64,000 bases of DNA from an uncultured Clostridium sp. (GCA_948469315.1 CAOKLQ010000003.1:80007-144006); one strand, 5' to 3'; shown: positions 33,791 through 52,833, numbered from the stretch's first letter. Notes: a model not told the origin generated them from the sequence alone. Numbers and translations are program-made.

Positions 33791-33865
33791 TGGCTGGGCT
33801 GGCTAGATTCGAACTAGCGCATGCCAGAGTCAAAGTCTGGTGCCTTACCGCTTGGCTACAGCCCA
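33791..33865 (-). tRNA. tRNA-Gln (UUG)
   Basis: Reverse complement folds as a cloverleaf with anticodon loop cuUUGac, T-loop GTTCGAATC and 3' CCA. Confidence 0.85.
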
Positions 33866-33880
33866 ATATAAAATTAAAAC

Positions 33881-33958
33881 TGGGGTGGAAGATGGGACTC
33901 GAACCCACGATCTCCAGTGCCACAAACTGGCGCGTTAACCAACTACGCTACATCCACC
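33881..33958 (-). tRNA. tRNA-His (GUG)
   Basis: Reverse complement has anticodon stem-loop ccagt-ttGTGgc-actgg, T-loop GTTCGAGTC, 3' CCA and an extra 5' G. Confidence 0.8.
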
Positions 33959-34066
33959 ATGTTTAAATGCACCTCTTGTGAGCACATTATTTATTTTAAA
34001 CTATATTGATAGTGTTTGTCAATTAGATTTTATATAAAGTCTTTAAAACTTTAATAAAGGCTAAAT

Positions 34067-34150
34067 TGGTGCGGATGAAGGGACTCGAACCCCCACGCCT
34101 AAGGCACTGGTTCCTAAGACCAGCGCGTCTACCAGTTCCGCCACATCCGC
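34067..34150 (-). tRNA. tRNA-Leu (UAG)
   Basis: 84 nt with long variable arm; anticodon loop cuUAGga; T-loop GTTCGAGTC; 3' CCA. Confidence 0.85.
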
Positions 34151-34369: not shown

Positions 34370-35240
34370 TCACACTTTTTTATAAAGATTATGCCGTTTT
34401 TTCATAGTATAATCTTTCTTTTCATTCGGTGTTATATATCCTAAACTACTATGTATTCTTTTGTTATTATACCAACTTTCTATAAATTCAAATATTGCTA
34501 ATCTTGCTTCTTCAAATGTTATGTATCTTCTTTGATTTACTTCTTCTTTCTTTAATATGGCATTGAAGCTTTCCATACTTGCATTATCATATGGATATCC
34601 CTTTTTTACTATATGAATGCTTTATATTTAATGTTTTTAATAACTCTTCATAATCATTTGATGTGTATTGACTTCCTAAATCTGAATGAAATACCATTCC
34701 TTCTTCTATTCCTACATTACATACAGCATTGTTTAATGCTTGTATTACTAAATTTGCTGTCATATGCTTTCCATATGAGTATCCTATTATTTTTAAATCA
34801 TATAAATCCATTACTATTGCTAAATATGTCCATCCTATTTCTTTTGTATAAATATATGTTATATCTCCAACCCATTTTTCCTTTGACTTTATTGCATTCA
34901 AATTTTGTTCTAATAAGTTGGGTTTATTTGTATCATCTACTCTTTTATTTTCAGCATAATTATATTTTTTCACTACTATACTTCGTATTCCTAGTTTTCT
35001 CATCCTTCTTGCTACTCGCTTTTGACTTGTTTTTGTTCCTTTACTTGCTAGTACCTTCTGTATTTTGGGTGATCCATATCTTCTTTTTGATTCAGTATAT
35101 ATTTCCAGTATTTTTTTGTCTAATTCTTTATTATTTTCCTTATATCTGTTTGTTTTGTTATTTTTGTGATAGTAATATACTGAATGATGTATTCCCATAC
35201 ATTTGCATAAAAGTCCTATGCTGTGTTTATCTTTCATCAT
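34370..35240 (-). pseudogene. IS3-family transposase orfB (integrase core), broken by a frameshift in a G-run near 34578
   Basis: 217-aa ORF (..HSDLGSQYTS..) and 68-aa ORF (MESFNAILKKEE..RIHSSLGY) are the two halves of one rve-domain protein. The aaaaaaggg run carries one extra base. A CGG at 34391-34393 in the distal fragment is in frame. Confidence 0.7.
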
Positions 35241-35619: not shown

Positions 35620-35715
35620 ATTTTCACATTCACTAAATGAACTTTTTTCTAAAAATTAAGTACACTTGGTGAACTAAATCTAAAATATTTTATAAAAATC
35701 GAGTACACTCGGTTT
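35620..35715. repeat. partial copy (R0) of the palindromic 16-mer repeat family seen at 40905-41170 and 48580-48760
   Basis: agtacacttggtgaact and aaaatcgagtacactcgg (about 18 nt identical to 41046-41066) abut the IS right end and overlap the stop of the truncated ATPase ORF. Confidence 0.55.
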
Positions 35716-35934: not shown

Positions 35935-36543
35935 TTATAATTTTCTATTTATTTCATCTATCCAACTTTCATCATCACTTTCAAAGTGTTCAACAAACTT
36001 CAATATATTGGTGCTAGAAGTTATATTGTCATCTGTTGATAACTTAGCTACATTTTCCTTCATTTTTTCATAATTACTTCTTTTAATTTTGCTAAATAAT
36101 TCTTTTCTTTGCTCATCTGTAGCTTTATAGTTATCAATGCCAACATACTCCTTTATATACTTACTATTTATAACTTTGCTTTGACTTGTTAATTTTATTT
36201 CAGCAAAATGTGAAAGTATTATTTGCATTGTACATGGATTTCCAAATATTACTATGTCATCTGCTACATCTTCTCCATGAAAGTCATTTATTTTTTGTTT
36301 AATTTCTTTATATTTTTCTGATGGTCCTTTATCTGTATCACAGAATATTAAAACCAAAGAATATGAATCTGATTGATATTTTTCTTGATACCTTGCTATT
36401 ATTGTGTTTATTGATTTTGCATTTACTGTGATAAAATCATATTTGTTGGAAAATATGGCTTTACTTTTTAAAGTCTCAATATAATCTAATTCTTCATATC
36501 CTTCACATATAATGCATATTTTCTTTCCTTTATATTTCCTCAT
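35935..36543 (-). CDS. RloB-like (AbiLii-like) protein
   Basis: 202 aa; N-terminal KKICIICEGYEELDYIETL matches the RloB-like family signature; gene overlaps the upstream AAA ATPase gene by 14 nt. Confidence 0.6.
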   Translation of the reverse strand: MRKYKGKKICIICEGYEELDYIETLKSKAIFSNKYDFITVNAKSINTIIARYQEKYQSDSYSLVLIFCDTDKGPSEKYKEIKQKINDFHGEDVADDIVIFGNPCTMQIILSHFAEIKLTSQSKVINSKYIKEYVGIDNYKATDEQRKELFSKIKRSNYEKMKENVAKLSTDDNITSSTNILKFVEHFESDDESWIDEINRKL

Positions 36544-37780
36544 TATCCACCTCCAATAAGGTAGATATTAAGTCTGGTTCAGGTATTGCTCCAAATTCAC
36601 CTTTAATATATTTTTCTTGTATATTTGATGTATCTCTTACTCCATTTTCTGCATAACTAAATTCTTTTAGCGAATATAAATCTGTTCCATTTTCATCTTT
36701 GTCTGTAAACCATATTTGCTCTTTTCTAAACATTCTCTTGCAGTCTAACAAACTTATATCATGAAGAGTAGCTATTAATTGTGCTTTTTTATTTATTTCA
36801 TTATTAAACATACTGATTATTGCTCTTGTAATTTTAAAATGCAAACTACTATCTAATTCATCAATTACTAATGTTTTGCCTTGTTCAATTGCTTCTATTA
36901 CATAACTTGCAAGAGCTGCAAATTTTCTTGTTCCTAATGAATCAAATATAATACTTGGCACTGCTTGCCCTTTATAAACTGACACAATTTTTATTTGATC
37001 CATAAAGTTTTGATTTTTTAGAATTTTCTCATCTACAACTTTTCCATCTATCTCCACATTTAAGTCTTCAATATACATATAATCTTCCAAATACAAATCG
37101 GCATTTTTAATAAACTCAACAACTTTTTTTGTTTCATCATCTTTATTTTTTAACATTTGTATTGTTTTTGAATTTGGTATTTTATTCATATCTACTATTT
37201 CAATACTATTTGCTATACCTGTTAATATGGTTTTTATTTTTTCTAATATTGGGAATTTTTCAATTTGTACTGTATATATTAAAATATTGTTATTAGAAGC
37301 TATATTTAATACTTTTGCTAATTCTTCATCTTGTGGACATTCATATTTTTCATTAATTGTATCTTTTAAAAATATTAGTTCTTCTTTTTCATTATTATAT
37401 TGGTCTTTAACTATTTGACACATTTTTTCATATATATACATCATTTTTTTATCATCAAATTTATATTCATATAAATACTCTTTGTTATCATATATAAATG
37501 AAATTGCTTCCTCGCAAATATTGCTGTCTGTAAATATATTTGAATCTAAGTGAATTTCCTTATTTAGTAAAGTTCCTTTAATCGCTTTAATACAATTTAT
37601 TAAAGTAGTTTTTCCTGTATTGTTTGGACCATAAATAGCTGTGGATTTCAATATATTTAGGTTATCATTTATATTAGTTACATTTGATGAAAATTTTTTT
37701 GTTCTCATATCTGCTTTTAAACTCATTTCTATAGTATTATTAAAAGCAAAGCAATTATTAAATTTTAAACTTGTTATCAT
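36530..37780 (-). CDS. AAA_21-type ATPase (AbiLi/RloA-like abortive-infection ATPase)
   Basis: 416 aa; Walker A GPNNTGKTT near the N-terminus, Walker B/D-loop LVIDELDSSLH near the C-terminus, and the long insert typical of ABC-like AAA_21 ATPases that pair with RloB-like proteins. Confidence 0.65.
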   Translation of the reverse strand: MITSLKFNNCFAFNNTIEMSLKADMRTKKFSSNVTNINDNLNILKSTAIYGPNNTGKTTLINCIKAIKGTLLNKEIHLDSNIFTDSNICEEAISFIYDNKEYLYEYKFDDKKMMYIYEKMCQIVKDQYNNEKEELIFLKDTINEKYECPQDEELAKVLNIASNNNILIYTVQIEKFPILEKIKTILTGIANSIEIVDMNKIPNSKTIQMLKNKDDETKKVVEFIKNADLYLEDYMYIEDLNVEIDGKVVDEKILKNQNFMDQIKIVSVYKGQAVPSIIFDSLGTRKFAALASYVIEAIEQGKTLVIDELDSSLHFKITRAIISMFNNEINKKAQLIATLHDISLLDCKRMFRKEQIWFTDKDENGTDLYSLKEFSYAENGVRDTSNIQEKYIKGEFGAIPEPDLISTLLEVDNEEI

Positions 37781-37914: not shown

Positions 37915-38128
37915 TTAATTCGTAAATTTTATTCGATTTACGAACTATAACGGCAAAATATTAAAAATACTTACTCTTAAATTTTATATCAAGTATTTAT
38001 ATTTACTTGTCGGAAATCTTCGTAAATACCAAATAATTTACGAAAGTTTCCGACATATTTAATTCCCATATTACTAAAATTAGTGATTTTTCGTAATAAA
38101 GATTTTTGTATTACGAATTTTTCACTTT
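37915..38128. promoter_or_regulatory. array of inverted repeats with TCGTAAAT / ATTTACGA half-sites between the ALDH 3' end and the AAA-ATPase start
   Basis: ttcgtaaatttt-attcg-atttacgaa (37921-37946), tgtcggaaatcttcgtaaat-accaaataa-tttacgaaagtttccgaca (38008-38056, 20-bp arms), tttcgtaataaag..gtattacgaa (38088-38120) and ttttcgtaat (38130). Confidence 0.45.
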
Positions 38129-38158
38129 TTTCGTAATATAACTCTTATAAGTAACTTA

Positions 38159-39526
38159 CTACTTTTCAAATGTAACTACTTTAATGTTGCATAATCCTCT
38201 TAATCCCCATTTTCCACGAGTTCTTCCTAAACCTGATTTTTTAACTCCACCAAATGGATTATAAGGTGCAGAATATGCCAAATTATTGCAAGCTACCATT
38301 CCAGTTTTTAATTCTTTACTTATTTTTTCAAAATCTTCTTTATTTGTAGTAAATACATATCCGCCTAAACCATAAATAGTATCATTTGCAAGTTCAATCG
38401 CTTCTTCTATTGTTTTAAAGCTAACAATAGGTAATATTGGTCCAAATACTTCCTCTTTCCACACTTTCATATCTTTTGTAATATTTGTTAAAATTGTTGG
38501 TTCAAAATAATTTTCTTTTTCTTCTGGTTGTTTTCCACCACAAACAATATTTGCACCTTTGTTTACTGCATCATCAAATTGTTCTAATAAAGTATTAATT
38601 TGCTTTGTATTTACAAGAGGACCTATTGTTGTATTTCTATCAAGTGGATTTCCTATAATTTGTGATTCAACAATATTTTTAAGTTTTTCTACAACTTCAT
38701 CAAATATACTTTCGTGAACAATTAACCTTTTTAATGCATGACATAATTGCCCACTATTTGAAAATTTCTTTTTAAATATTCCTTGAATAACACTATCAAT
38801 ATCTGCATCTTCACATACAATTCCTGGTGCAGAACCTCCTAATTCCATAAGAACTGGAAGCATTTTATTTGCTGCTACTTTATATAGATATTCTCCTGTT
38901 TTTGTATTTCCTGTAAAACAAATCATTTCAATATCTTGTTCTACTAAAAAACTTCCTATTTCTTTTCCTCCAAATACAAACTGCCATACTCCATTTGGTA
39001 ATCCTGAGTTATTCAATAGTTCTTCTAAAAGTTTATAAAGAAGTGGTAAATTAGGATCTGGTTTACTAATTACAACATTACCAACAATTAGATTTTGAAA
39101 AGCTATTGCACAGCATAATGAAAGTGGATAATTAAATGGTGAAATTGCTACAATTATACCTTTTGGTTCATAAAAAATTTTTTGTATTTCTTTATCACCT
39201 TCAAATGTAATCTCTGGAGCAATACAATTCTTTGCATTTTCTAAGTCCCATTTTATATTTTTTAATGTAGACTTTATTTCGTTTTCTGATTGAACAATTG
39301 GTTTTCCCATTTCTAATGATATTAAATTCGCAATTTTATCTATATTTTCTTCAAATTTGTTATATATTTCTTTTAGCACTTCAATTCTTTTCTCTATCTC
39401 CCAATTAGCCCATTTACTTTGCACAGACTTTGCTAAATTTACTTTTTCTATAACTTCTTCCTTTGTAGTTTCTTCAATTTCTCCTAAAACTTCTTTGTTT
39501 GCTGGATTAATAGATATAATTTTCAT
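38159..39526 (-). CDS. NAD(P)-dependent aldehyde dehydrogenase
   Basis: 455 aa; ALDH glutamate and cysteine active-site regions (ELGGSAPGIV ... FSNSGQLCHA). Confidence 0.85.
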   Translation of the reverse strand: MKIISINPANKEVLGEIEETTKEEVIEKVNLAKSVQSKWANWEIEKRIEVLKEIYNKFEENIDKIANLISLEMGKPIVQSENEIKSTLKNIKWDLENAKNCIAPEITFEGDKEIQKIFYEPKGIIVAISPFNYPLSLCCAIAFQNLIVGNVVISKPDPNLPLLYKLLEELLNNSGLPNGVWQFVFGGKEIGSFLVEQDIEMICFTGNTKTGEYLYKVAANKMLPVLMELGGSAPGIVCEDADIDSVIQGIFKKKFSNSGQLCHALKRLIVHESIFDEVVEKLKNIVESQIIGNPLDRNTTIGPLVNTKQINTLLEQFDDAVNKGANIVCGGKQPEEKENYFEPTILTNITKDMKVWKEEVFGPILPIVSFKTIEEAIELANDTIYGLGGYVFTTNKEDFEKISKELKTGMVACNNLAYSAPYNPFGGVKKSGLGRTRGKWGLRGLCNIKVVTFEK

Positions 39527-39675: not shown

Positions 39676-40494
39676 TCATAGTCTTTTATGTGATATTGGG
39701 TCTATTGTAAATGTTTTTCCCATTAAAACATCTCCAATATATTTTTCATTTTTTAGTATTCCCCTTACGGTTGATTCGCACCATTTATCTCCACCTTTTG
39801 GAGTTTTTATTCCTTTAGCTGTTAGTTCTTTTGCTATGGTACTTGATCCTATTCCTTCTACATATCTTTCAAACATATATCTAACAATATTTGCTTCTTC
39901 TTCATTGATTGTTATTTCTTTTGTTTCAAGATTGTAGTTATATCCATAACAACCATTATAGCCAATTAATTCTCCTCTATCTTTCTTCATTTTTAATCCT
40001 AATAGAACATGTGAAGATATATTCTCGCTTTCTTGTTGTGCCATTGCACTTAGTAGTGTTAATACTAGTTCTCCTTGACCTGAACCTGTATTGATATTTT
40101 CTTCTTCAAATAGTATTGCAACATTTTTCTCTTTTAGCATTCTTACATATTTCAAAGTATCTAATGTGTTTCTAGCAAATCTTGATATTGATTTTGTTAG
40201 TATCATATCAATTTTACCTTCCATGCTATCCTGTATCATTTTCATAAAGTTTGTTCTTTTAAAATCTAATGTTCCAGATATTGCTTCATCTGCATATATT
40301 CCAGCAAATTGCCATTCTGATTTGCTATTTATTTTTTCATCATAATACTTTAATTGTGATTGATAACTATTTAATTGTTCTTCACCCGCTGTGCTTACTC
40401 TACAATATGCACATACTCTTAGTCTTTCTTTTATTGTTGTTCCTGTTACTCTGTTGATTCTTCCGTTTGTTTTCTCTATGACTTGAATTTCCAT
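39676..40494 (-). pseudogene. large serine recombinase, C-terminally truncated copy
   Basis: 272 aa about 70% identical to the N-terminal 275 aa of the 574-aa recombinase at 46412-48136 (catalytic CAYCRVST Ser motif, GYNGCYGY); ends at ..IDPISHKRL where the full copy continues into its zinc-ribbon and coiled-coil domains. Confidence 0.7.
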
Positions 40495-40565
40495 CTTTCC
40501 TCCATTCCGCCTAGAGATAAAACTTAATAATTTTATATCATTTTTTAGGTAAAAAGTAAATTGAA

Positions 40566-40743
40566 TTTATAAAAGTTTGTAATCTTTTAATATTTTTCTT
40601 TTTATTTCTTGTTGCTCCGAATCTAGTATTAAGTTTTCTCTAAACAGATTATTTAAAAGTGATAGTTCCACGCTACAATTTAGCATAGTATTATCTTTTA
40701 ATTGTTTAGAGTTATCTACTTCTATTTCATAATCATGTAGCAT
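40566..40743 (-). CDS. small conserved protein (59 aa) upstream of the truncated recombinase
   Basis: MLHDYEIEVDNSKQLKDNTMLNCSVELSLLNNLF.. is homologous to the 61-aa ORF at 48204-48389 (MLYEINFDNTKNIKLNEKIFNCSIKIAILNKTF..), which sits in the same position before the intact recombinase; below the ORF-track length cutoff. Confidence 0.5.
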
Positions 40744-40904
40744 GAAATTTCTCCTTTTCCTTTAAATTTGAAAAGAAAAAGAGCAGAGAAATTAGTTTTT
40801 AAGCTAATCTCTTTGCTCTTTCTTTTTCATGCTATCATTATATTATTGTGTTTTTATAAAATCAATTCCCTTTTTATTCCCTATTTTCTATTTCTAATAT
40901 AATT

Positions 40905-41300
40905 TTTAATAAGTACACTAAGTGAACTAAAAAAAATATGATTTGAAATCACAAGTTCACTAAGTGTACTTATAAAATTTAGATTTAGTTCACTTGGTGT
41001 ACTTGAAAACTTTTTACTCTTTTCACATTCACTTAGTGAACTTACTTTATGAAAATCGAGTACACTCGGTGAACTTTTGCCTAAAATGAGTGAACTTTTT
41101 TAAATTTTTAGTTCACCATTTTCAATTTTAACGAAGAATAGCGGGTTTGAGCCTGTTCACTCGGTGAATTTTTACATCATATTTGCTTAAAATTTTTGTT
41201 TCTTTATTAACTCTTGAAGGCTTGTCCTTCAATGTGTGTAAGCGATATGTTAATACCGCTTTCCTGCCCTCATTTCTAATGAGGTATTTTGAGTTTTAAT
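40905..41300. repeat. R1: array of palindromic 16-mers (GTWCACT-NR-GTGWAC) plus a conserved ~85-nt block with hairpin
   Basis: Six copies (agtacactaagtgaact, agttcactaagtgtact, agttcacttggtgtact, ttcacttagtgaact, gagtacactcggtgaact, gttcactcggtgaat). The block gcttaaaatttttgtt..cttgaaggcttgtccttcaatgtgt..cgctttcctgcc is about 90% identical to 48783-48865. Confidence 0.7.
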
Positions 41301-41476: not shown

Positions 41477-42865
41477 TTATACTACTCTTATATGTAAATA
41501 TTTTCCATTATCATTTATTCCTTTATTTATATTAATATTTTTATATGTAAATTCATTTTTGTTATTTTCTTTCATTTTTTTTATACATTCAAAAAAATTA
41601 TTATTATTAAATTGTTCTACAAAATCATTTTCGTGTTTATCTGGTACAAAAATAATAGTATACTCTTTTAATTTCTCTTTTCCTTCAAAATATCCTATCA
41701 ATTCAAATAATTCATAAAGTATATTTATTGTCATTTCAGTATTATTTAATGTTTTCATAAGTGGACCTGTATATCTCATTAACTTTATATTATACATATC
41801 ATCTACAAGCTGCCTTTTTTCAATATTATATTTATTTAAAATATAATCAAAATCCATAGTTAACTTTTCAACTTTATTTTCTCCTACTATATCGCAAATT
41901 CTTTCAATAGCTACTATTTCTTTATTTCGGGTTGTTTTTTCACCATAAGTAATTTGTTTAAAGAAATTAAAACAATCCTTTATTCTTTCGTATTTTTCTA
42001 TGTTCATCAAACTTTCATCAACTGCAATTACATCTGCATATGCTAATAACCATAAAATTTGAGGAATCTCGCTTTTTATATCATCAATTTTAGGTAATTC
42101 TGATAGTAATTTTTCATATTCATTTTGTACATATAAATCACTACTTTCAGATGATAAAGATGTTATTAAAGTATGATATTTTATAATTTCTTTTAAAATT
42201 TTTGTAAAATCTTTTAAATTCAATGACATTTTTGACTTGTCAATTCCTATTTCACTCAAAACTTTTGTTACAAATTTAGCACCTAATTTATCATGAAATT
42301 TTATATCTTCTATAACACCAATGTCATGAATTAATGTAAAAACTTTCAACAAAAGTTTTGATTCTTTGTTTAATTTATTATATATATCATGAAGTTCTCT
42401 TATTTGTTTTATATTCTCTTTATTTCCATTAAAGTTTACTAATTCTTTATTATATGCGATATTATAGTTTACAATTTGATATACATATAAACTATGTGCC
42501 ATCCAGCCATTTAATTTATATGTATTTATTCCTCCACGAATTATTTTATTTTCTTGCTTTAAAGTATCACTAATCCTATCAATGTAATTCTCTCCATTCT
42601 CATATTTACTATATAAAATCCATAAATACTTAGAAGATTTTTCGCTTTTTAAAATATTTATAAAATTACATTTTAATACATTAATATCAATATGTACATT
42701 ATATAATAATTCATCTAACTCTTTCGCTTTTTGTTTTTTTATCAAATTACTCTCATCATCTGTTTTAGCTTTTTTCAATTGTATTCCTGTTTCTCTATAA
42801 AACTTATCATAATTAAAATTTAATTGCTTTTCAGTTACATTCTTTATTCCATAAGCCTCTAACAT
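41477..42865 (-). CDS. orphan HD-domain protein of unknown function
   Basis: About 462 aa from MLEAYGIK after a GGAGG RBS; central HD motif (KVFTLIHDIGVIEDIKFHDKLGAKF) and a later LLAYADVIAVDE; no other recognisable domain. Confidence 0.55.
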   Translation of the reverse strand: MLEAYGIKNVTEKQLNFNYDKFYRETGIQLKKAKTDDESNLIKKQKAKELDELLYNVHIDINVLKCNFINILKSEKSSKYLWILYSKYENGENYIDRISDTLKQENKIIRGGINTYKLNGWMAHSLYVYQIVNYNIAYNKELVNFNGNKENIKQIRELHDIYNKLNKESKLLLKVFTLIHDIGVIEDIKFHDKLGAKFVTKVLSEIGIDKSKMSLNLKDFTKILKEIIKYHTLITSLSSESSDLYVQNEYEKLLSELPKIDDIKSEIPQILWLLAYADVIAVDESLMNIEKYERIKDCFNFFKQITYGEKTTRNKEIVAIERICDIVGENKVEKLTMDFDYILNKYNIEKRQLVDDMYNIKLMRYTGPLMKTLNNTEMTINILYELFELIGYFEGKEKLKEYTIIFVPDKHENDFVEQFNNNNFFECIKKMKENNKNEFTYKNININKGINDNGKYLHIRVV

Positions 42866-43331
42866 AATTTCTTTCCTCCGTATTAAAATAAGTATTTGTT
42901 CACATTTTATCACACATTAATCAAAAAATAAAGCATATAACAAATCAAATTATTACATACTTTACATTTTAAGTTTTACCTCTAAACATTCATATATTTT
43001 AATAAACAATTATACTACTCCGCACACCATATCAACTTCTATCGTTACCCTAATTTTATTATTTTCTACTCGTTTAATCTTATTTTTGCCTTTTCTCTCA
43101 AAACTAATAAAATCCTCAAAAGCAGTAAACTCAACTATTGTATCGTATCTTTTAGATATAGCACCGAGCAACACTCCACGTGCGTGGTGGTCACTCCGTT
43201 GAATAGTAGCCCTCAATGTGGTATCCTGACGGTTGATAGGTCAAAAGTAAAAGTTCTATATTCTCTTTTATTAAGTTTCTTATAGTATCAAATCTTAAAA
43301 TACTTAATGTTGACATTTTCAATTTACTAGT

Positions 43332-45168: not shown

Positions 45169-46125
45169 CTAACCATTTAAAAAGTTCATAATTAAATCTA
45201 TTATAACATCTTTTTCTTTTGGATTTGATTCAGCAGTTAATAAAGTTAATGCTGTTAAAGTATTATTATCAATAACTTGTTTTCCATCTTTTATCAAAAT
45301 ATCATAATAGTTTAAAAAATATATAAATAGTGTTGCAGCAATTCTTTTGTTTCCATCTATGAAAACATGATTCTTAACTATTAAATATAAAAAATTTGCC
45401 GCTTTCTCTTCAATACTTTTATAAATATCTTGTCCATCAAAACTTTGATAAATATTTCCAATTATTGATTCTAACCCTTTGTCTCGTTCAATAGCAAATA
45501 TATCACTCTCTTCGTTGAATCTTAATTTTGTTATAATTTTAATACATTCAGTATATGATATTTTTCTATTATCTATATTTCCTTCAACTTTTTTTAATGT
45601 TTTATGGTCATAATCATCTAACAAATCTAATGCCTTTGAATATTCCCCAATAACTTTTAGTATTCCATTTGCATCTTTATTTTCTAATTTCTCATCTATC
45701 CTATTTGCTATATCTATTAATTTTATAGTTTTTTCTAAATATTCTAATCTTTTCTGATTTACTGCATATCCTTTTAATATATATTCTTTTAAAACTTTAT
45801 TCGCCCATCTTCTGAATATAATACCCTTCTCTGATTTAACTCTGTAACCAACACTTAAAATCATATCTAAATTATAATATTCAATATTTCTTGTAACTTC
45901 TCTTTTTCCTTCTTTTTGAACTGTCGCAAAATTTGCGACAGTTGGTATATCTTTTAATTCTTCTTTTAAAGCATTATTTATATGTTTTCCAATTGTTTTT
46001 ATATCTCTATGAAATAATTTAGATAATTGTTGTCTATTTAGCCACACAGTTTCATCTTTCATACTTACTTCTAGTTTTATTTCTCCATCTTCAAATAAAA
46101 TAATTTCGTTTTTCTTTTTTTCCAT
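45169..46125 (-). CDS. RhuM-family / Fic-domain protein
   Basis: 318 aa; RhuM-type N-terminal region (..FEDGEIKLEVSMKDETVWLNRQQLSKLF..) and Fic motif HVFIDGNKRIA. Confidence 0.75.
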   Translation of the reverse strand: MEKKKNEIILFEDGEIKLEVSMKDETVWLNRQQLSKLFHRDIKTIGKHINNALKEELKDIPTVANFATVQKEGKREVTRNIEYYNLDMILSVGYRVKSEKGIIFRRWANKVLKEYILKGYAVNQKRLEYLEKTIKLIDIANRIDEKLENKDANGILKVIGEYSKALDLLDDYDHKTLKKVEGNIDNRKISYTECIKIITKLRFNEESDIFAIERDKGLESIIGNIYQSFDGQDIYKSIEEKAANFLYLIVKNHVFIDGNKRIAATLFIYFLNYYDILIKDGKQVIDNNTLTALTLLTAESNPKEKDVIIDLIMNFLNG

Positions 46126-46411: not shown

Positions 46412-48136
46412 CTACCCATCACCGCAACACATTCCACGTGGCTCACACATAGGCTGTAGATAGTTTTTGCTTACCTCGTATGATGACTGTTGATTTTTTT
46501 GTTCTTTTTCATCATCTTTGCACTTGATTTCGTTTCCAGATTTTAGGATAAATGTTATTACTCTTGGATTTGTTTCTCCATTACTTCCTTTTTCTCCTAT
46601 TATAACTTTTTCTATCATTAGTTCAAAAACATCTTTATCAAATTCTGGCATAATTTCGTTGTCTTTAAACAATGTTTTAAACTTGTTTAATCCTTGATTT
46701 AAACTTATTGAATCTTCTAATTCTATTTGCAAATGCTCTTGTTCTTTTTCTATATTATTTATTTTGTTTTGTAGTTTTGCTTTCTTTTCTTGCAGAGTTT
46801 CTAATGTTATTGTTCCATTTAAGTTTAAATCAATTAGCTTGTCTATCTTTTCTTTTAATATTTGTTTTTCTTCCTCCAGTCTTTTAATAGAACTTTCGTT
46901 ACTCTCTTCTTGTATAATTTCTTCTATTTCGTTTAAGAATGTTTGGATTAGTTCTTTATTGTTATTACATAGTAGTCTGTAACTTTCTGTAAATGCTTCT
47001 TCTATAATACTTTCTTTCATAGCTTTGCAATGTGGACAATTTTCTTTTCCATGTTTTACAAACTCCATACAATGCCAAACTGTAATACTATTTTTTGTTC
47101 CAGAATGCCAGTTTCTCCTTGTTAATAAACTACCACAAAATCCACAATATAATCTACTACTAAAAGGATATTTTCTACTAAAGTTGCCTTTTCTTCTTCC
47201 AGAGCCTCTTACTCCTCCTCGTTTTTGTAAAATTTCTTGTACTTGATTAAACATTCTTTCAGAGATGATTGGCTCATGATGTTCTTGTATATAGTATTGA
47301 TTTTCTTCTCCCATATTGACTACTCTTCTATGTGATATTGGATCTGTTGTATATGTTTTTCCTTGTAAGACATCTCCTTTGTATTTTTCGTTTTTCAAGA
47401 TACCTCTTATTGTTGATTCGTGCCACTTTTTCTTTCCTGTTGGAGTTTTGTATTTCATATTTGTTAGTTCTTTTGCTATTCTTGTACAGCCTACTCCTTG
47501 GCAGTATCTTTCAAAGATATATCTTACTATTTCTGCTTCTTCATAATTGATTGAGATTTCTTTTGTGTCTTTATCATATACATATCCTAAACATCCGTTA
47601 TATCCAATTAATTCTCCTCTTTTTTGTTTCATTTGTAATCCTAGCTTTACATGAGAAGATATATTTTCGCTTTCTTGTTGTGCCATTGCACTTAATACTG
47701 TTAGCATGATTTCTCCTGATATTTCTAAAGTATTAATTTTTTCTTCTTCAAAATAAATAGCAATTCCCTTCTCTTTTAGTAGTCTTACATATTTTAAAGT
47801 ATCTACTGTATTTCTTCCAAATCTTGATATTGATTTTGTAATTATCATATCAAATTTGCCCATTGTTGCATCTTGCATCATTTTCATAAAACCATCTCTT
47901 TTATAGTCTAATGTTCCTGTTATTCCTTCATCTGCATAAATACCAACATATTTCCAATTACTATTGCTTTTGATTTTTTCTTCATAATACTTTAATTGAG
48001 AATTGTAACTGTTTATTTGTTCTTCTTTTTCTGTACTTACTCTTGCATAAGCACACACCTTTAAATTACCATTTATTTCTTCTCCTGTTGTTCTATTAAT
48101 TCGACATTTTTTCTTCTCTATAACTTGTACTTTCAA
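46412..48136 (-). CDS. large serine recombinase (intact)
   Basis: 574 aa; resolvase catalytic domain (CAYARVST), recombinase domain, Cys4 zinc ribbon (CGFCG..WHC..C..C) and a long coiled coil; the last 8 codons overlap the 24-bp att-like core. Confidence 0.85.
   Translation of the reverse strand: MKVQVIEKKKCRINRTTGEEINGNLKVCAYARVSTEKEEQINSYNSQLKYYEEKIKSNSNWKYVGIYADEGITGTLDYKRDGFMKMMQDATMGKFDMIITKSISRFGRNTVDTLKYVRLLKEKGIAIYFEEEKINTLEISGEIMLTVLSAMAQQESENISSHVKLGLQMKQKRGELIGYNGCLGYVYDKDTKEISINYEEAEIVRYIFERYCQGVGCTRIAKELTNMKYKTPTGKKKWHESTIRGILKNEKYKGDVLQGKTYTTDPISHRRVVNMGEENQYYIQEHHEPIISERMFNQVQEILQKRGGVRGSGRRKGNFSRKYPFSSRLYCGFCGSLLTRRNWHSGTKNSITVWHCMEFVKHGKENCPHCKAMKESIIEEAFTESYRLLCNNNKELIQTFLNEIEEIIQEESNESSIKRLEEEKQILKEKIDKLIDLNLNGTITLETLQEKKAKLQNKINNIEKEQEHLQIELEDSISLNQGLNKFKTLFKDNEIMPEFDKDVFELMIEKVIIGEKGSNGETNPRVITFILKSGNEIKCKDDEKEQKNQQSSYEVSKNYLQPMCEPRGMCCGDG
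46420..46443. repeat. 24-bp direct repeat (att-like core) shared with the rumA 3' end
   Basis: caccgcaacacattccacgtggct is identical at 46420-46443 and 54515-54538, in the same orientation, each inside the last codons of a minus-strand gene (serine recombinase; rumA). Confidence 0.8.
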
Positions 48137-48203
48137 AATTAACCTCTCTTTCTCAAGTTTAGAGAATCTTTATGTGCTTATTATACATCAAAATATTAAA
48201 TTT

Positions 48204-48389
48204 TCAAATACCTATATGAGTTAAATTATATTCTTGCAAGATATTTTGTTTAAGTTCTAAATATCTCTTTTCTTTAATTAGTCCTGCATTAAATGTTTTG
48301 TTTAGTATTGCTATTTTAATACTGCAATTAAAAATTTTTTCATTTAGTTTGATGTTTTTCGTATTATCAAAATTGATTTCGTACAACAT
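48204..48389 (-). CDS. small conserved protein (61 aa) upstream of the intact serine recombinase
   Basis: Homolog of 40566-40743; candidate recombination directionality factor or regulator. Confidence 0.5.
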   Translation of the reverse strand: MLYEINFDNTKNIKLNEKIFNCSIKIAILNKTFNAGLIKEKRYLELKQNILQEYNLTHIGI

Positions 48390-48539
48390 AAAAATTCTCC
48401 TCCTTGAATAATTTAAATTTCAAAAAAGGCAACAGAAAAAGCCAGTCGTGCTAGCTTCGACTGACTTGATTGTTTTTACATTTTTTGATAATACGATTAT
48501 ATTATGCTGTTCTATAAAGTTCAATTCCCGTTTTTTTCC

Positions 48540-48880
48540 CTTTTTTCTATTTTGGCTATTAAAGTGTTGATTTTTAAATAAGTACACTAAGTGAACTTGT
48601 ATAAAATTTTTTTAAATCTCTAGTTCACTTGGTGTACTTTTCTTTTAAATTTCAATCAAATTCAAGTACACTTGGTGAACTAATTATTGTATTTTTATAA
48701 AATTTAGTACATTTAGTGAACTTTCGCACTCTAATAGGCATTTTTTAGTGGTTTATTGGGTGAATTTCTGTATCAAATCTGCTTAAAATTTTTGTTCTTT
48801 TATTAATTCTTGAAGGCTTGTCCTTCAATGTGTATAGGCGATGTGTGAACACTCGCTTTCCTGCCTTTAGTTTAACTAAT
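48540..48880. repeat. R2: second array of palindromic 16-mers plus the conserved ~85-nt block
   Basis: agtacactaagtgaact, agttcacttggtgtact, agtacacttggtgaact, agtacatttagtgaact, then the conserved block (48783-48865) ending ..cgctttcctgcc. Confidence 0.7.
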
Positions 48881-48889
48881 TTTAATCAC

Positions 48890-50884
48890 TTATTGTTTAT
48901 TTCTTATATTATAATATTTTAATTGTTTTTCCATAAAAAGATCATCTAAAATTACTATTTTACTTTGAGTACATTTTGCTAAATATTCTATATCTTTTTC
49001 AAGTTGTTCATCGAATTTTATTGGACATATTGCTCCAATAATACCTATTCTCTGTCTATCTTGTGATGCCACCAACATTTGTTGTATCATCTCTCTCGCT
49101 TCTTTACTAGAACGAGTTAAATTACAACTACTTTTAGCTATACCCACAAATTCAAATTGTTTATTTTTATAAGTAACTTTGAAATTAATATCTCCAAATT
49201 CGTGACCATGGTGTGGACCTGGTCTATATCCTTCATATGTTGTAAATAACTTAAGTATACACATATTCTTATCATCACAATTAATACATTTTTCTTTAGT
49301 AGGATATGTACACTTTTCCTTAATTTTTTTCAAATTACTGTCTAATATTTCTTTTTCATGCGTATCTATTTCAGTTGATAGAATAGCTTCAAATTCTTTT
49401 ATTTCTGACAATTTTAATAAACATCCATTTGATTTTTCTAATATTTGTAAATTGTTGTTAATAATAGAAATACATCCATCAAATTGTATTTTTAAATTTT
49501 CATATAAAAAATCGATAATATCTGTATATAACTTTGAATTTGGTATTAAATAGATGTTAATATTTTCTATGTTACTAACATTTATTTTATGCCCTTCTTC
49601 ACATTCTAGATAATTTAATGTGCTTCCACAATTTGAACAAATAATAGTTTTATTAGCTGTCATTTTAATATCGTAACTTCCACAATTACATTTTGGAACA
49701 CAATATGAATCATTACATTCATTGCAATTAATAAAAATCTTATTCATAAAGTATTTCGATAATTTTGAATAATCTAATTTTGTTTGTATAATTGAATTAT
49801 AGTTTTTATCTTTTGAAAAACATATTATCTTAAATATAATTTCTTCTATAATCTTTTTTTGCTCTGTTGTATAATTAGTCCACTTTTCATTACTCATAAT
49901 ATTTTTAGATTTAAATATTTCAAATTCCGTTTCATGACTTGCAATATATTTTATAATTTCTCTAATAGTAGTTATACTCCATTTTCTAAAAGATGTTGCC
50001 GCCATATTTTTAGTAAGATGAATTTTGCCTTTTGAATTATTTATTCCTAAAGTGTTTATTACATCTTCAACATTAATTTCAAGTGTTTCACTAGTTGTAG
50101 TATATGGTTCTAATTGTTTCTTTAGTTCTTCCTTTTCATCAAGCTTAGAATCTGAAATCATTATTTTTTCCGCTTCTTTTTCATTTGCATTGAGATTTAT
50201 ACCTGAAACTTTTTTTCTTCTATCTCCAAATACTTTTTTAACCAATTCTTTAGTTAATACTATAGGATATAATTCCGCTTCATAAATCTGTGAAATTGCT
50301 AAACTTAATTTTTTTATTACTCTTTCATCACAATTTTTAATTGCAACAAAATTATCTTCTATACTAATCCATACAAAAGTTTCTTTCAATTCATATATAT
50401 ATGTAGGCTCTTCCTTTTCATTAATATATGAATACTTTTTTAAGTAATAAAAAGAGTACTCTGTTAAATTTTCTTCTTTTAAATATTCACTATTATTATA
50501 TATTATATTTTTTATTGCAGGTTGTTCATCTTCATTATTAGTAATCTCTTTCAATTTTTCTTGTATTTTAGTACATACTTGATTTGTAGATAATTTTTTA
50601 CTACTTTTAAAAGAAAAGATTGAAAAACCAGGCTTTAGTCCATATCTATATTCTTCATAACATGTATCAATTTCTTCTTTCGTTATATTACTTGATTCTA
50701 TAATTATTGTAAGTTGTGCTCTAGATAACTTATAAATTGCTTTACTGTCTTTTGGTGTAGTTTTAGTAACATTATATATTTTACTAATAACATCCTCTTC
50801 ATCATATTTACTTAATATTAATTTACATAGTCCCTCTAACCTAATTAAGTCTAACTTTGTTTTTAATTGCTTTGTTAATTTCAT
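48890..50884 (-). CDS. large Cys-rich hypothetical protein (about 664 aa)
   Basis: Likely start MKLTKQLK (GGGGGA RBS); the ORF track extends to 50959. Central CxxC..CxC..CxxC cluster, second Cys cluster, C-terminal region ..PGPHHGHEFGDINFKV..FEFVGIAKSS..ILDD with a possible nuclease-like D..E..K arrangement; no confident family. Confidence 0.5.
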   Translation of the reverse strand: MKLTKQLKTKLDLIRLEGLCKLILSKYDEEDVISKIYNVTKTTPKDSKAIYKLSRAQLTIIIESSNITKEEIDTCYEEYRYGLKPGFSIFSFKSSKKLSTNQVCTKIQEKLKEITNNEDEQPAIKNIIYNNSEYLKEENLTEYSFYYLKKYSYINEKEEPTYIYELKETFVWISIEDNFVAIKNCDERVIKKLSLAISQIYEAELYPIVLTKELVKKVFGDRRKKVSGINLNANEKEAEKIMISDSKLDEKEELKKQLEPYTTTSETLEINVEDVINTLGINNSKGKIHLTKNMAATSFRKWSITTIREIIKYIASHETEFEIFKSKNIMSNEKWTNYTTEQKKIIEEIIFKIICFSKDKNYNSIIQTKLDYSKLSKYFMNKIFINCNECNDSYCVPKCNCGSYDIKMTANKTIICSNCGSTLNYLECEEGHKINVSNIENINIYLIPNSKLYTDIIDFLYENLKIQFDGCISIINNNLQILEKSNGCLLKLSEIKEFEAILSTEIDTHEKEILDSNLKKIKEKCTYPTKEKCINCDDKNMCILKLFTTYEGYRPGPHHGHEFGDINFKVTYKNKQFEFVGIAKSSCNLTRSSKEAREMIQQMLVASQDRQRIGIIGAICPIKFDEQLEKDIEYLAKCTQSKIVILDDLFMEKQLKYYNIRNKQ

Positions 50885-51056
50885 AAAAATCCCCCACTTT
50901 TTTAACATCCATAGTATATCATATATCGACATTTTTCTCAACATTTCCTTTATTAGCATATTTTCAAAAAAACAAAAGTTCTGTTTTTTGTCAAAAACTA
51001 TTGATTTTTTGTATATTTTTGTTATAATAAATCATACTAGAAAGGATGTTTGATAT

Positions 51057-51599
51057 ATGCAAGAATTATTAAATATTTTAAATGATACTAAAAGTACTTT
51101 AGATAATTATTATGAAGTACATAGAAATGAAGATTTTTCTAATAAGAGGAATACTCCTAAAGATTATCTTAAATGGATTGGTAAGAAAACTAAAATTATA
51201 CTTAATTCTCCTGAATTTATAGAAAAATCAAAAGAATATATTGTTCGTGGAGATGTAGTTTGGGTTGAATTTGGATTTAATATAGGTGAAGAGTTTAGCG
51301 GTAGACATCCTGCTATAGTTTTAAAAAACGGTGGTAAAACATTATTAGTTTTACCTATTACAAGTAAGCAACCAACAGAAAAACAACTTGCTAGTAAAAC
51401 TTATATTGAACTTGGCAAAATATATAATTTTAAGACAATGAAAAGATGGGTAAATATCTTCAACATTAATCCTGTAAGTATTGAAAGAATAGATTTCACA
51501 AAGAAAAAAGGAAATATTAAGGGAGTTGATTTAGACACTATATCAAAAGCATTTTTAGATTCTGACCTCTTTAAATATAGACCTTCTAAGAATAATTAA
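51057..51599 (+). CDS. PemK/MazF-like toxin domain protein with ~60-aa N-terminal extension
   Basis: 180 aa; core RGDVVWVEFGFNIGEEFSGRHPAIVL..GKTLLVLPITSKQP matches the MazF/PemK fold signature; no adjacent small antitoxin ORF. Confidence 0.6.
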   Translation: MQELLNILNDTKSTLDNYYEVHRNEDFSNKRNTPKDYLKWIGKKTKIILNSPEFIEKSKEYIVRGDVVWVEFGFNIGEEFSGRHPAIVLKNGGKTLLVLPITSKQPTEKQLASKTYIELGKIYNFKTMKRWVNIFNINPVSIERIDFTKKKGNIKGVDLDTISKAFLDSDLFKYRPSKNN

Positions 51600-51728
51600 T
51601 GATTTTTCAGAATTTTTGCATAAAATTCTTGATTTTTACATAAAAATATAGTATCATTTAATTAATAGGAAATCTATTTAATTAGATGACTGAGAAGGCT
51701 CATTTTGGTGAGCAGTTATGATTTAGAA

Positions 51729-51767
51729 TGTAGCTTATATAGAAATATATGAGCTACAGTTTTTTAT
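51729..51767 (+). terminator. rho-independent terminator after the MazF-like gene
   Basis: gtagcttatat-agaa-atatgagctac followed by TTTTTTATTTTT. Confidence 0.7.
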
Positions 51768-51936
51768 TTTTAAATTTATTAAAAAATATTGATTTTTATT
51801 AAAATACTTATTATAATTTTATTACATTTAATGTTGCACACTTATACAGTGTGGAGTTTGTTTCATCTTTTATAAAGATGCTTAAAAGCCTTCTATCAAA
51901 AGAAGGTTTTACTTATAAATAACTTACTTTTCTCCC

Positions 51937-52833
51937 TTAATATATTTCACTAATCACATAATCTACAAATATTTCTGCCACATTCTTTCCACTCAATTCT
52001 TCTATATCACAAATAGCTGGATCTGCATTCACTTCACAAACTATTGGCTTATTTTCATTACTCATAAAAAAGTCAACCGAACAATAATCTAAATCTAATT
52101 CATTTGCTATCTTTTCTGCAATTTCCTTATATTCATTTGAAACTTCATAAGGCAATGCTTTTCCACCTAATGATATATTTGAGCGATAATCATTCTCATT
52201 TATTCTCATAAATGAACCTACTACTTTCTTCCCTGCAACTACAACTCTAATATCTTTTCCTACATTTTCTGGAATAAACTGTTGAAATAAATATTGTGAA
52301 CCACTTAATTTATTACATATATCATTAAATTCTTCTCTATTATTTATTTTGTATATATCTCTACCACCCTTACTATTACATTTTTTAGTTATAAAAGGAT
52401 ATTTTAAAGTTCTTTCAACATATTTCTTGAATTCTTCATTTATATTATCTTCTTTAATGTTTTCTACTCCAAAATTTATACTACCTAATATTGTATGTGG
52501 CAAGTTTATATTTTTATTTGACAATATAACATAAGTCATCATTTTATCATCACAGTTTTCTATCGCATTATAAGAGTTAAATGACCTTATTCCATTTTTG
52601 CAAAGTTCTTCATTTATATATTTATCTTTAACAAGTTGTATACAAAAATCATATTCTTTAACATCTATATTTACCTTTCCATTTATTACACTCGTATATT
52701 GTTCATCAACTTTTAATTTATCTATACTAATGCCTTTTTTGTTAAATTCTTCAATAAGTCTGTTGTATTGATATTGTTTTGCTTCATTTTGAAAACCTGG
52801 ATAAATTAATATTAATCCCTTTTTATTTTTCAT
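51937..52833 (-). CDS. RimK-type ATP-grasp ligase
   Basis: About 298 aa from MKNKKGLILIYPG after a GGAGGTG RBS; ATP-grasp motifs DIRVVVAGKKVVGSFMRINENDYRSNISLGGKA and CSVDFFMS..EVNADP. Confidence 0.7.
   Translation of the reverse strand: MKNKKGLILIYPGFQNEAKQYQYNRLIEEFNKKGISIDKLKVDEQYTSVINGKVNIDVKEYDFCIQLVKDKYINEELCKNGIRSFNSYNAIENCDDKMMTYVILSNKNINLPHTILGSINFGVENIKEDNINEEFKKYVERTLKYPFITKKCNSKGGRDIYKINNREEFNDICNKLSGSQYLFQQFIPENVGKDIRVVVAGKKVVGSFMRINENDYRSNISLGGKALPYEVSNEYKEIAEKIANELDLDYCSVDFFMSNENKPIVCEVNADPAICDIEELSGKNVAEIFVDYVISEIY

Follow-up and report, generated by a model that had tools for sequence, protein, structure and literature searches.

A MazF-like gene and a large Cys-rich gene diverge at one locus

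We analyzed a 64,000-nt stretch of DNA from an uncultured Clostridium sp. (GCA_948469315.1 CAOKLQ010000003.1:80007-144006; hereafter the window, with coordinates counted from its first letter), in which two divergently transcribed genes encode a 180-aa protein of the MazF/PemK family and a 664-aa Cys-rich protein, and a candidate small RNA gene lies just downstream of the MazF-like gene (Table 1). The window is AT-rich, with a GC content of 0.21-0.31, and its closest relatives are metagenome-assembled genomes (MAGs) of uncultured gut Clostridium. A first-pass annotation had tentatively joined the two protein-coding genes into a single toxin-antitoxin or defense module; the comparisons described here point to two separate units, one of which consists of the MazF-like gene and its RNA.

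The minus-strand open reading frame (ORF) at 48890..50959 would encode 689 aa, and an internal ATG at 50884 gives the 664-aa product. This ATG has a Shine-Dalgarno (SD) sequence, GGGGGA, 5 nt upstream, and the shorter start agrees with the lengths of homologues (661-666 aa) and with a 100%-identical 664-aa database protein (P0001). Given that the large gene starts at 50884, the gap to the MazF-like gene is 172 bp; both ORFs lie where the first-pass annotation had put them, but the 97-bp gap that it reported fits the 689-aa reading. A promoter-like site for the large gene (TTGAGA-17-TATACT) is found at 50941-50913 on the minus strand, and the MazF-like gene has a ribosome-binding site, AGGA, about 9 nt ahead of its ATG.

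Table 1 Features of the locus, in window coordinates.
Feature	Position	Strand	Basis
Large serine recombinase (Resolvase, Recombinase and Zn_ribbon_recom in Pfam)	46412..48136	-	library match
61-aa ORF of the island	48204..48389	-	ORF; recombinase neighbor
Iteron cluster (GTACAYTTRGTGAAC) and conserved left border of the cargo slot	48582..48873	.	motif count, locus comparison
664-aa Cys-rich protein, variable cargo, candidate stand-alone defense nuclease	48890..50884	-	ORF, SD, homologues
Cys4 cluster and C-terminal alpha/beta domain, aa ~523-661, putative PD-(D/E)xK-like nuclease	48902..49318	-	conservation, weak Foldseek matches
Zinc-ribbon region, aa ~379-448	49541..49750	-	conserved Cys/His
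Beta-rich domain, aa ~86-290, RdgC / CENP-N / TBP-like fold	50015..50629	-	AlphaFold2 (AF2), Foldseek
5' region of the large gene, part of the cargo unit rather than the MazF unit	50885..50969	.	promoter-like site, homology border
Conserved 0.8-kb bipartite cassette: P1, long MazF-like ORF, P2, small RNA, terminator	50970..51780	+	blastn boundaries
P1, promoter-like site of the MazF-like gene, TTGATT-16-TATAAT with TG	51001..51028	+	sequence scan
180-aa MazF/PemK-family protein	51057..51599	+	Pfam PF02452, AF2 fold match
N-terminal extension, aa 1-63, predicted helices 2-22, 34-50, 52-58	51057..51245	+	AF2
PemK/MazF core, aa 64-166, signature VWVEFGFNIGxEF(S/G)G(R/K)HPA	51246..51554	+	alignments to 1ub4/3nfc/7d28 chains, invariant columns
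P2, putative promoter of the small RNA, sigma-70-like TTGATT-17-TATCAT	51629..51657	+	sequence scan, conservation
Small RNA, ~105 nt, candidate RNA antitoxin	51660..51764	+	5' end placed from P2; alignment, covariation
Repeat 1, single-stranded motif UUAGAUGACUGAGAAGG	51682..51698	+	near-invariant columns
Internal hairpin SL2, GCUCA-UUUUGG-UGAGC	51698..51713	+	covariation, folding
Repeat 2, single-stranded motif UUAUGAUUUAGAAUG	51716..51730	+	alignment, RNAalifold
Intrinsic terminator common to MazF mRNA and small RNA, 13-bp stem and T-run	51729..51758	+	covariation

The MazF-like gene and a small RNA gene form one bounded cassette

The cassette that carries the MazF-like gene has sharp edges. 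In more than 30 loci with unrelated flanks, blastn homology to it starts at 50961-50994 (mostly at 50970/50971) and ends at 51764-51780, so that the left border falls between the two divergent promoter-like sites (50941-50913 on the minus strand and 51001-51028 on the plus strand). We computed mean pairwise identity region by region from 47 distinct cassettes: it is 0.75-0.96 within the cassette compared to 0.35-0.38 in flanks of 10-16 nt. The highest values belong to the part downstream of the toxin gene, with 0.96 for promoter P2 (51620-51659), 0.926 for the RNA body, and 0.935 for the terminator; the MazF-like ORF reaches 0.917 at codon positions 1 and 2 and 0.725 at position 3, and the 20-nt spacer after the stop codon has 0.65. 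An alignment of 290 nt around the stop codon from 38 distinct loci gives the same picture; the last codons and the first ~20 nt past the stop are variable, a near-invariant block of ~145 nt follows, and similarity drops abruptly after the T-run. As judged from conservation, these comparisons show that purifying selection acts on the small RNA and its promoter no less strongly than on the protein, and that the MazF-like gene and the small RNA are one conserved unit.

The alignment of the small RNA has a mean column identity of 93%, and its single-stranded parts are almost invariant. RNAalifold predicts 24 base pairs, 10 of which show double compensatory changes; 99.3% of the alignment cells in stems are paired, and the observed covariation was reached by none of 500 shuffles. 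In the internal hairpin SL2, three of the six pairs show double compensatory changes with 100% of cells paired, and compensatory changes occur in 7 of the 13 pairs of the terminator stem. The minimum free energy of the single sequence has a z-score of -3.86. UUAGAUGACUGAGAAGG and UUAUGAUUUAGAAUG are two imperfect purine-rich repeats that agree at 10 of 14 positions, and each is followed by a hairpin and then by AGU. A covariance model built for this RNA, R1, finds a single copy in the window, at 127 bits. Rfam 15 gave no match at the gathering score, nor at E values up to 5 in 48100-52000, including toxI, cptI, tenpI, and the pemK motif; in 12 related loci no Rfam family matched at E up to 1.

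Two other roles for this segment were considered and rejected. One is an antisense, type I-like mechanism: the predicted duplex of the RNA with the MazF mRNA has an energy of -38.6 kcal/mol, compared to -37.3 +/- 3.7 in 200 shuffles. Given that complementarity is at the level of shuffled sequence and that the RNA is encoded on the same strand as the MazF-like mRNA, such a mechanism is unlikely. Pairing of the RNA with the 5' end of the large gene was likewise no better than with shuffled sequence. The other is a small peptide, encoded by an 11-codon ORF with its ATG at 51686; its length and sequence are not conserved in other clades, it has no properly spaced SD sequence, and the substitutions in its stems are compensatory.

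We found no gene for a protein antitoxin. In the window, no ORF of at least 20 aa with antitoxin character lies upstream or downstream of the MazF-like gene, which agrees with the absence of a small antitoxin gene noted in the first-pass annotation. There is also no type II-style antitoxin gene upstream in ~45 loci, where the upstream neighbors are divergent and mutually unrelated.

The RNA is the constant partner of the MazF-like gene across relatives

A scan of JGI metagenomes for the exact motif gave 14 matches. In 11 of these, a full MazF-like ORF lies directly upstream on the same strand; the other three end at a contig or locus edge, and one of them retains the 3' end of the ORF. Two loci have lost most of the toxin gene and kept the RNA: L072, from the metagenome scan, retains only the first 33 toxin codons together with the RNA, and L062, from the genome scan, has lost 51293-51610 and retains the promoter, the N-terminal codons, and the RNA. 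Among the loci examined, the small RNA was never found without a MazF-like gene or a remnant of one, and no intact MazF-like ORF was seen without the RNA body. IMG/VR contained no match to the motif and two distant matches to the protein.

The same layout is found in relatives whose MazF-like proteins are only 30-46% identical, including those of Geobacillus virus E3 and a Heyndrickxia plasmid. We read the downstream region in L058, L059, L060, L061, L063, L089 (an IMG/VR contig), L091, L094 (Mycoplasmatota), L095 (an ICE-like conjugative region, where ICE is integrative and conjugative element), the Heyndrickxia oleronia plasmid, and Geobacillus virus E3 GP38. In every one of them, the stop codon is followed by a near-consensus promoter, TTGACA-17-TATAAT/TATCAT, and then by an RNA of 80-120 nt. 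Nearly all of these RNAs have two units of a purine-rich motif plus a hairpin, the last unit being the terminator; the exception, L061, has two internal hairpins plus the terminator. The five that we folded (L058, L059, L060, L061, and L063) have z-scores of -3.6 to -6.7. Covariance model R1 misses the RNAs of the distant lineages, whose assignment rests on sequence reading and folding, that is, on shared architecture.

The repeat motif varies by protein clade around a shared core, UGARAAGG - stem-loop - AGU. In the clade of L089, L094, and L095, a 14-nt repeat, AUAUCUAAAAAAGA, is identical or nearly so in both units and the hairpins covary; in L089 and L094 the RNA gene is present in two tandem copies (2 x 2 repeats). 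No protein gene is conserved beside the toxin gene across the distant lineages, and the RNA is its sole constant partner. Carriers of the protein-plus-RNA layout, down to ~30% identity, thus include Clostridia and Bacilli, one genome of the Mycoplasmatota, a phage, a plasmid, and the ICE-like region.

In Geobacillus virus E3 (L099, KP144388.1 29435-31140), GP38 is the long MazF-like protein and is followed by a two-repeat RNA; its name in GenBank is 'putative transcriptional regulator'. One kb past GP38 lies the gene for GP40, a short PemK-like protein of the canonical kind, with a 57-aa ORF (GP39) ahead of it, so that both architectures are found in one cultured system.

The protein has a PemK/MazF core with an altered active site and a conserved N-terminal extension

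Both sequence and fold place the 180-aa protein in the PemK/MazF family. Pfam PemK_toxin (PF02452) matches residues 64-166 with an E value of 2.5e-11 and 44.2 bits, compared to a cut-off of 23.1, and five distant relatives also pass the gathering score; the NCBIfam MazF equivalog scores the protein at 21 bits against a cut-off of 120. The AF2 model, built from 40 homologues and confident in one of five models only (pLDDT 77.0, compared to 38.8-51.2 for the rest), consists of three helices followed by a barrel. The barrel matches MoxT (4hke), SaMazF (4mzp), and B. subtilis YdcE (1ne8) with target-normalized TM scores of 0.70-0.78 and root-mean-square deviations of 2.3-3.9. This fold search returns MazF proteins, not ToxN, and the sole Pfam match is PemK_toxin, not ToxN_toxin. 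A profile of the close family found nothing among PDB sequences. There are 97 close homologues; the wider family, defined by a ten-sequence alignment at 30-69% identity that shares the core signature and a Y-x2-W-x3-K motif, comprises 188 clusters at 90% identity that are annotated merely as 'PemK/MazF family toxin'.

The position of the catalytic Arg29 of E. coli MazF (R25 in B. subtilis) is occupied by His84 (51306-51308), which is invariant in the family and directly preceded by Arg or Lys at position 83. The Thr52 position corresponds to residue 102, a Thr or Ser throughout the family; S103 is invariant, and 'LPITSK' aligns with 'CPVTSR' in the MazF chains compared. The Ser/Thr and basic positions of the active site are conserved. 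His serves as a competent general acid/base in other RNases.

The first-pass annotation had described a ~60-aa N-terminal extension ahead of this core, and we place its length at ~63 aa. It is present in every member of the family, where it is 60-170 aa long, and it carries the Y37-x2-W40-x3-K44 motif; in the ten-sequence alignment, W40 is invariant and Y37 and K44 are nearly so. Among the 47 cassettes, codon positions 1 and 2 of the extension have an identity of 0.887, compared to 0.731 at position 3, which argues that the extension is translated and under selection. Searched alone, it matched nothing in PDB sequences or Pfam.

The MazF-like gene decays often. Truncated or frameshifted versions are found in several lineages (P0105, P0108, P0126, and P0133), for example as 117-aa forms without most of the extension and the C-terminus.

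The large gene is a separate unit in a cargo slot

We tested co-occurrence of the two protein-coding genes from both sides, as the first-pass annotation had suggested doing. On the MazF side, a scan of one genome per GTDB species yielded 45 species-representative loci, mostly at 70-96% identity. A full-length large gene lies beside the MazF-like gene in two of them (L038 and L055), and an internally deleted remnant, in which window positions 48907-49150 are joined to 50790 onward, in another two (L036 and L041). In these last two loci and in a metagenome locus, L070, the MazF-like gene is intact beside a large gene that lacks aa ~32-578. The neighbors in the remaining loci are unrelated, and ~40 species have an intact MazF-RNA cassette and no large gene. 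On the other side, relatives that share 78-100% identity with the large protein have a MazF-like gene beside them; those at 61-62% lie at the 3' end of type I restriction-modification clusters (hsdS/hsdR), with GmrSD_N or DUF4268 and no MazF, and a 41%-identity relative is divergent from dndBCDE, again with no MazF. Given these distributions and the unit borders, we regard the two genes as separate evolutionary units; as far as the sequences tell, the MazF-like protein cannot depend on the large protein as an obligatory partner or antitoxin.

The first-pass annotation had placed the pair inside a recombinase-bounded element. Indeed, the large serine recombinase at 46412..48136 belongs to a mobile, defense-rich island, and in L031, L035, and L051 its orthologues, 90-93% identical, are no more than 3 kb away from the MazF cassette. 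The segment 48665-48873 is kept beside different cargo in L031, L035, L051, and L040. Four elements of the island (recombinase, 61-aa ORF, iterons, and 48665-48873) are retained at 82-93% in L031 and L035, ~3 kb from the MazF cassette, and where the window has the large gene these loci encode an NB-ARC+TPR protein or Hachiman HamB (2.5e-95). In L050, AbiP2 (3.7e-184) is encoded divergently from the cassette, as are NACHT/STAND proteins in L020, L024, and L026; in a few loci the divergent gene is not a defense gene. Because conserved borders surround genes that are swapped, 48874-50969 is a cargo slot and the 664-aa protein one of its occupants. PADLOC v2.0 assigned no family to the large protein or the MazF-like protein; among neighboring and slot-sharing genes it matched PDC-S23, AbiL, HamB, and AbiP2.

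The 15-nt iteron GTACAYTTRGTGAAC has 15 matches in the window compared to 0.34 expected. They form three clusters (35628-35713, 40913-41074, and 48582-48721), two of which lie upstream of an operon of a small ORF and a serine recombinase; an operator function is probable.

The 664-aa protein is a candidate defense nuclease

The large protein has 37 close homologues of 661-684 aa, and its family comprises 360 cluster representatives at 50% identity; some members, 550-575 aa long, are without the C-terminal domain. It has no match in Pfam, NCBIfam, PADLOC, or PDB sequences, and a scan of 66 family members found no Pfam model for the family, with occasional matches of members to Zn_Ribbon_TF or A2L_zn_ribbon. 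The AF2 model (pLDDT 84.5, pTM 0.82) shows a helical N-terminus, a beta-rich domain, a zinc-ribbon region, a Cys4 cluster, and a C-terminal beta-beta-alpha-beta-alpha-beta domain. The top Foldseek matches in the PDB are RdgC (2owl/2owy, E 1e-5 to 2.6e-5, target-normalized TM score 0.46), CENP-N/L, and Iml3-Chl4; we place these RdgC- and CENP-N-type folds on the N-terminal beta-rich domain at aa ~86-290 from the aligned length and the secondary structure.

The Cys-rich, zinc-ribbon-like clusters described in the first-pass annotation are conserved in homologues. C387, C390, C401, C416, C419, C428, and H432 are invariant in the zinc ribbon, and a second conserved cluster consists of C525, C533, C536, and C542. 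In 66 distant homologues at 17-41% identity, C542, H558, and D565 are invariant, E523, C525, C533, C536, E562, G564, K584, and Q602 are at least 90% conserved, and two of the ribbon cysteines are also invariant or nearly so.

The C-terminal domain has an invariant Asp and a Lys 19 residues apart, plus conserved Glu, His, and Gln, a pattern reminiscent of the PD-(D/E)xK nucleases (the FokI cleavage domain, the Mrr-like domain of Avs4). Foldseek gives weak matches to FokI, the Avs4 nuclease domain, and Cdn1 (E 0.05-0.3). These data point to a metal-dependent PD-(D/E)xK-like nuclease, so that the nuclease-like C-terminus of the first-pass annotation is plausible (H558, E562, D565, K584, Q602), but a canonical ExK motif is not present. 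By its architecture and by its neighbors in other genomes, the large protein is most likely a stand-alone DNA-targeting defense nuclease; an anti-phage role is likewise most likely, on guilt by association with its neighbors and slot-mates. Given that the cassette marks a slot in which Hachiman, AbiP2, and STAND ATPases are exchanged, this zinc-ribbon, nuclease-like protein would be a new and specific candidate for an anti-phage function.

In the clade at 61% identity, one of two genes always stands ahead of the large gene in the same orientation, either a 218-aa gene with no assigned function (L004, L087, and L088) or a DUF4268 gene (L082-L086). One or two genes past the large gene there is a TnpV-like gene, and the group lies where the type I restriction-modification clusters have their 3' end. 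The 218-aa gene may be a partner of the large protein in this clade.

A proposed type III-like toxin-antitoxin module beside a cargo slot

The best explanation overall, and one toward which we lean by a little, is that the locus consists of two independent units. The first (~50970-51780) would be a self-contained two-gene module, a long PemK/MazF endoribonuclease with a ~105-nt RNA made from its own strong promoter. The small RNA would be the missing antitoxin of the MazF-like RNase, binding it and perhaps being cut by it as in type III systems; the N-terminal extension probably contributes to RNA binding or oligomerization, and the module would serve the mobile island as an addiction and/or abortive-infection device. 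The second unit (48874-50969) would be the variable cargo slot of the serine-recombinase island, with the large protein acting independently of the MazF module. In type III systems, the RNA keeps the RNase inactive by forming a complex with it, and the site that the toxin recognizes is often part of that RNA. We favor this logic here because the RNA is structured and contains two imperfect repeats, because its promoter looks at least as strong as that of the toxin, because the RNA is kept in decayed copies, and because its motif varies with the toxin clade.

Three type III families, ToxIN, CptIN, and TenpIN, are the only ones listed in the literature that we consulted (PMC12283969). The MazF-RNA module shares with them an endoribonuclease of the Kid/MazF-like fold, an adjacent small structured RNA that contains repeats, the absence of a protein antitoxin, carriage on mobile elements or in defense contexts, and an RNA motif that co-varies with the toxin clade. 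It differs from them in several respects: the toxin is a PemK_toxin (PF02452) whose model matches MazF, in contrast to ToxN/AbiQ, CptN, and TenpN; there are two imperfect repeats (2 x 2 in L089 and L094), compared to 2-5.5 near-identical ones, much less numerous and less regular than those of ToxI; and no toxI, cptI, or tenpI family of Rfam matches. The gene order also departs from type III, where the RNA lies upstream, one promoter serves both genes, and a terminator stands between them; here the RNA is downstream of the toxin and has its own sigma-70-like promoter. By analogy, the module would work most like a type III system, but it misses the gene order, the toxin family, and the repeat number of that type.

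Compared to MazEF and PemIK, the protein scores above the PemK_toxin gathering threshold and has a MazF fold, Thr or Ser at the Thr52 position, and the core motif 'GDhhWVxF...G.E..G.RP'; it lacks two features of characterized type II MazEF systems, the catalytic Arg and an upstream protein antitoxin. There is no upstream MazE or PemI gene, an extension of 60-170 aa is present, and an invariant His stands at the Arg29 position with Arg or Lys one residue earlier. The pemK RNA motif lies upstream of pemK genes. The candidate RNAs of Weinberg et al. 2017 reportedly include it, as a structured RNA associated with pemK genes in Firmicutes. That motif exists as an Rfam family (bioRxiv 10.1101/2024.10.12.618037), and at E up to 1-5 it matched neither the window region nor any of 12 related loci. 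We searched the literature for a MazF that has an RNA antitoxin or an N-terminal extension and found none. The slot itself resembles the defense hotspots of other mobile elements in that its borders, 48665-48873 and 50970 onward, flank swapped defense genes; it differs in that a toxin-RNA module forms the anchor on one side and in that the slot travels on a large-serine-recombinase island of gut Clostridia.

A bolder version of this reading goes further, and we put it forward tentatively, as something that may well turn out to be wrong. The module would be a fourth type III family and the first built on a bona fide PemK/MazF RNase, with a His active site, an RNA-binding extension, and the antitoxin gene after the toxin gene under a separate promoter. 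Its range would take in Clostridia, Bacilli, phages, plasmids, and ICE-like elements. It would anchor a defense-swapping hotspot, and the Shine-Dalgarno-like repeat UGARAAGG, with its hairpin and AGU, would be a decoy of the toxin's cellular target.

In another reading, which we think unlikely but worth keeping in sight, the protein is a fused single-polypeptide toxin-antitoxin whose extension is a cis-acting antitoxin or autoinhibitory domain, and the RNA is an expression regulator or unrelated. EzeT and CapRel SJ46 each join a toxin domain to a further conserved domain in one polypeptide and lack a protein antitoxin encoded by another gene. Compared by description only, the MazF-like protein is like them in both respects, and we know of no obligatory RNA partner in those systems. 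The presence of the extension in every family member (60-170 aa), its purifying selection, its invariant Trp motif, and the absence of a protein antitoxin gene all favor such a fusion. What it leaves unexplained is why conservation within the cassette is highest in the RNA and its promoter, why the RNA is kept in the toxin-deleted loci L062 and L072, and why the RNA repeat motif changes along with the protein clade; AF2, with one of five models confident, gives no usable information on how the extension would pack.

Somewhat less probable, in our judgment, is that there is no toxin-antitoxin system at all and that the MazF-fold protein binds or processes the small RNA as a regulatory ribonucleoprotein of the mobile element, controlling for example the expression of the recombinase or the cargo. 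The replacement of the catalytic Arg by His and the strict linkage of RNA and protein are consistent with this, as are the position of the module at the edge of the recombinase island beside inverted-repeat att-like DNA and the GenBank name of the E3 homologue. Against it, the cassette is also found far from recombinases, in the ICE-like region, the phage, and the plasmid; the Ser/Thr and basic active-site positions are conserved; and the frequent protein pseudogenes with the RNA kept (P0126, P0133, L062, L072) are the pattern expected of a toxin.

The last two readings we consider very improbable. That the downstream block is a DNA-level signal, be it a recombination or attachment site, the end of an element, or a strong terminator with an outward promoter, fits its place at the right border of the conserved unit and the att-like inverted-repeat region that follows in at least 14 loci, but not the compensatory changes that preserve two hairpins, the same layout with unrelated primary sequence in distant lineages without a nearby recombinase, or a putative promoter directed into a structured segment that ends in a terminator.

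The idea that the two proteins form a non-canonical toxin-antitoxin or defense pair, in which the large protein would act in trans as antitoxin, sensor, or partner, draws on the divergent pair being kept in one sub-lineage with at least three outer flanks (the window, L001-3, L038, L055, L069, L078-81). As judged from distribution, it is largely refuted; ~40 species have an intact cassette and no large gene, the MazF-like gene is intact beside a gutted large gene in L036, L041, and L070, the 61% and 41% clades of the large protein are never near MazF, the unit border at 50970 runs between the two promoters, and Hachiman, AbiP2, and STAND ATPases occupy the same slot. The single module of the first-pass annotation, with its trans-acting partner, is thus not borne out: the full large gene accompanies 2 of 45 MazF-like loci.

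Several observations weigh against a type III-like module beside an independent defense nuclease. Toxicity, the expression and ends of the RNA, and the contact between RNA and protein are all read from sequence, and RNase activity is assumed for a protein whose His replaces the catalytic Arg of characterized MazFs. The layout is unlike that of every described type III system, with the RNA downstream, its own promoter, and only two degenerate repeats, and the conserved extension could itself be the neutralizing element. One MAG locus, L053, has no P2 and lacks the last 12 codons, with the RNA body still there. For the second unit, the nuclease assignment draws on conserved residues and weak fold matches, and the (D/E)xK acid is out of its canonical place, residue 582 being Ile. 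In the sub-lineage where the large protein is 72-100% identical, both genes stay together across at least three different flanks, which leaves some room for a lineage-specific functional link.

It is routine to annotate 'orphan' MazF/PemK toxins as members of type II whose antitoxin is missing. The MazF-RNA module suggests that a whole subfamily (188 clusters) may be run by a small RNA that gene callers do not see. If the type III-like reading is true, it would link MazF and ToxN-type toxins, the two best-known classes of RNase toxin, and would extend type III biology beyond three families and a fixed gene order; a compact RNA-protein pair would also be available from cultured sources, Geobacillus virus E3 GP38 and the Heyndrickxia oleronia plasmid.

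The island around the cassette

The island contains an insertion sequence (IS), AbiLi/AbiLii, RhuM-Fic, a truncated and a full large serine recombinase, and the three iteron clusters, and it adjoins tRNA genes. Three tRNA genes (33794-34150) lie at its left, beside the IS (rve) at 34587-35240. The AbiL two-gene system at 35935-37780 on the minus strand consists of an AbiLi-like AAA_21 ATPase (1.2e-64) and AbiLii (1.2e-8). A RhuM + Fic/DOC protein, which matches the PADLOC candidate system PDC-S23 (2e-124), is encoded at 45169-46125 on the minus strand, immediately downstream of the recombinase. About 5 kb to the right of the island are a tmRNA gene (56771-57127, minus strand) and a further tRNA gene (57269-57341).

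The recombinase module is present a second time, in truncated form, at 39676-41268, where a recombinase fragment of 272 aa and an ORF of ~60 aa (~40550-40745) are found together with iterons and a conserved border of 100 bp. Identity of this copy to 47321-48852 is 74-84%, with a paralogous copy of the left border at 40823-41268, and this duplication indicates tandem or nested elements. After the second iteron cluster, at the position equivalent to the slot, lies the gene for a 478-aa protein (41477-42913, minus strand) with no Pfam or PADLOC match, which could be another defense candidate.

In at least 14 other loci, a segment of ~170 bp rich in inverted repeats (TTCGTAAAT..ATTTACGAA; ATTACGAAAA..TTTTCGTAAT) lies directly past the MazF-RNA terminator. 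In the window, its homologue (38001-38174) is 13.7 kb away from the cassette, on the left. A 17-nt near-repeat, CTTATAARTAACTTACT, occurs at 38146-38167 and at 51911-51932, and L001, L002, and L019 join 51932 directly to 38146. From these junctions, the inverted-repeat segment may be an attachment (att) site of the serine recombinase, with the island circularly permuted.

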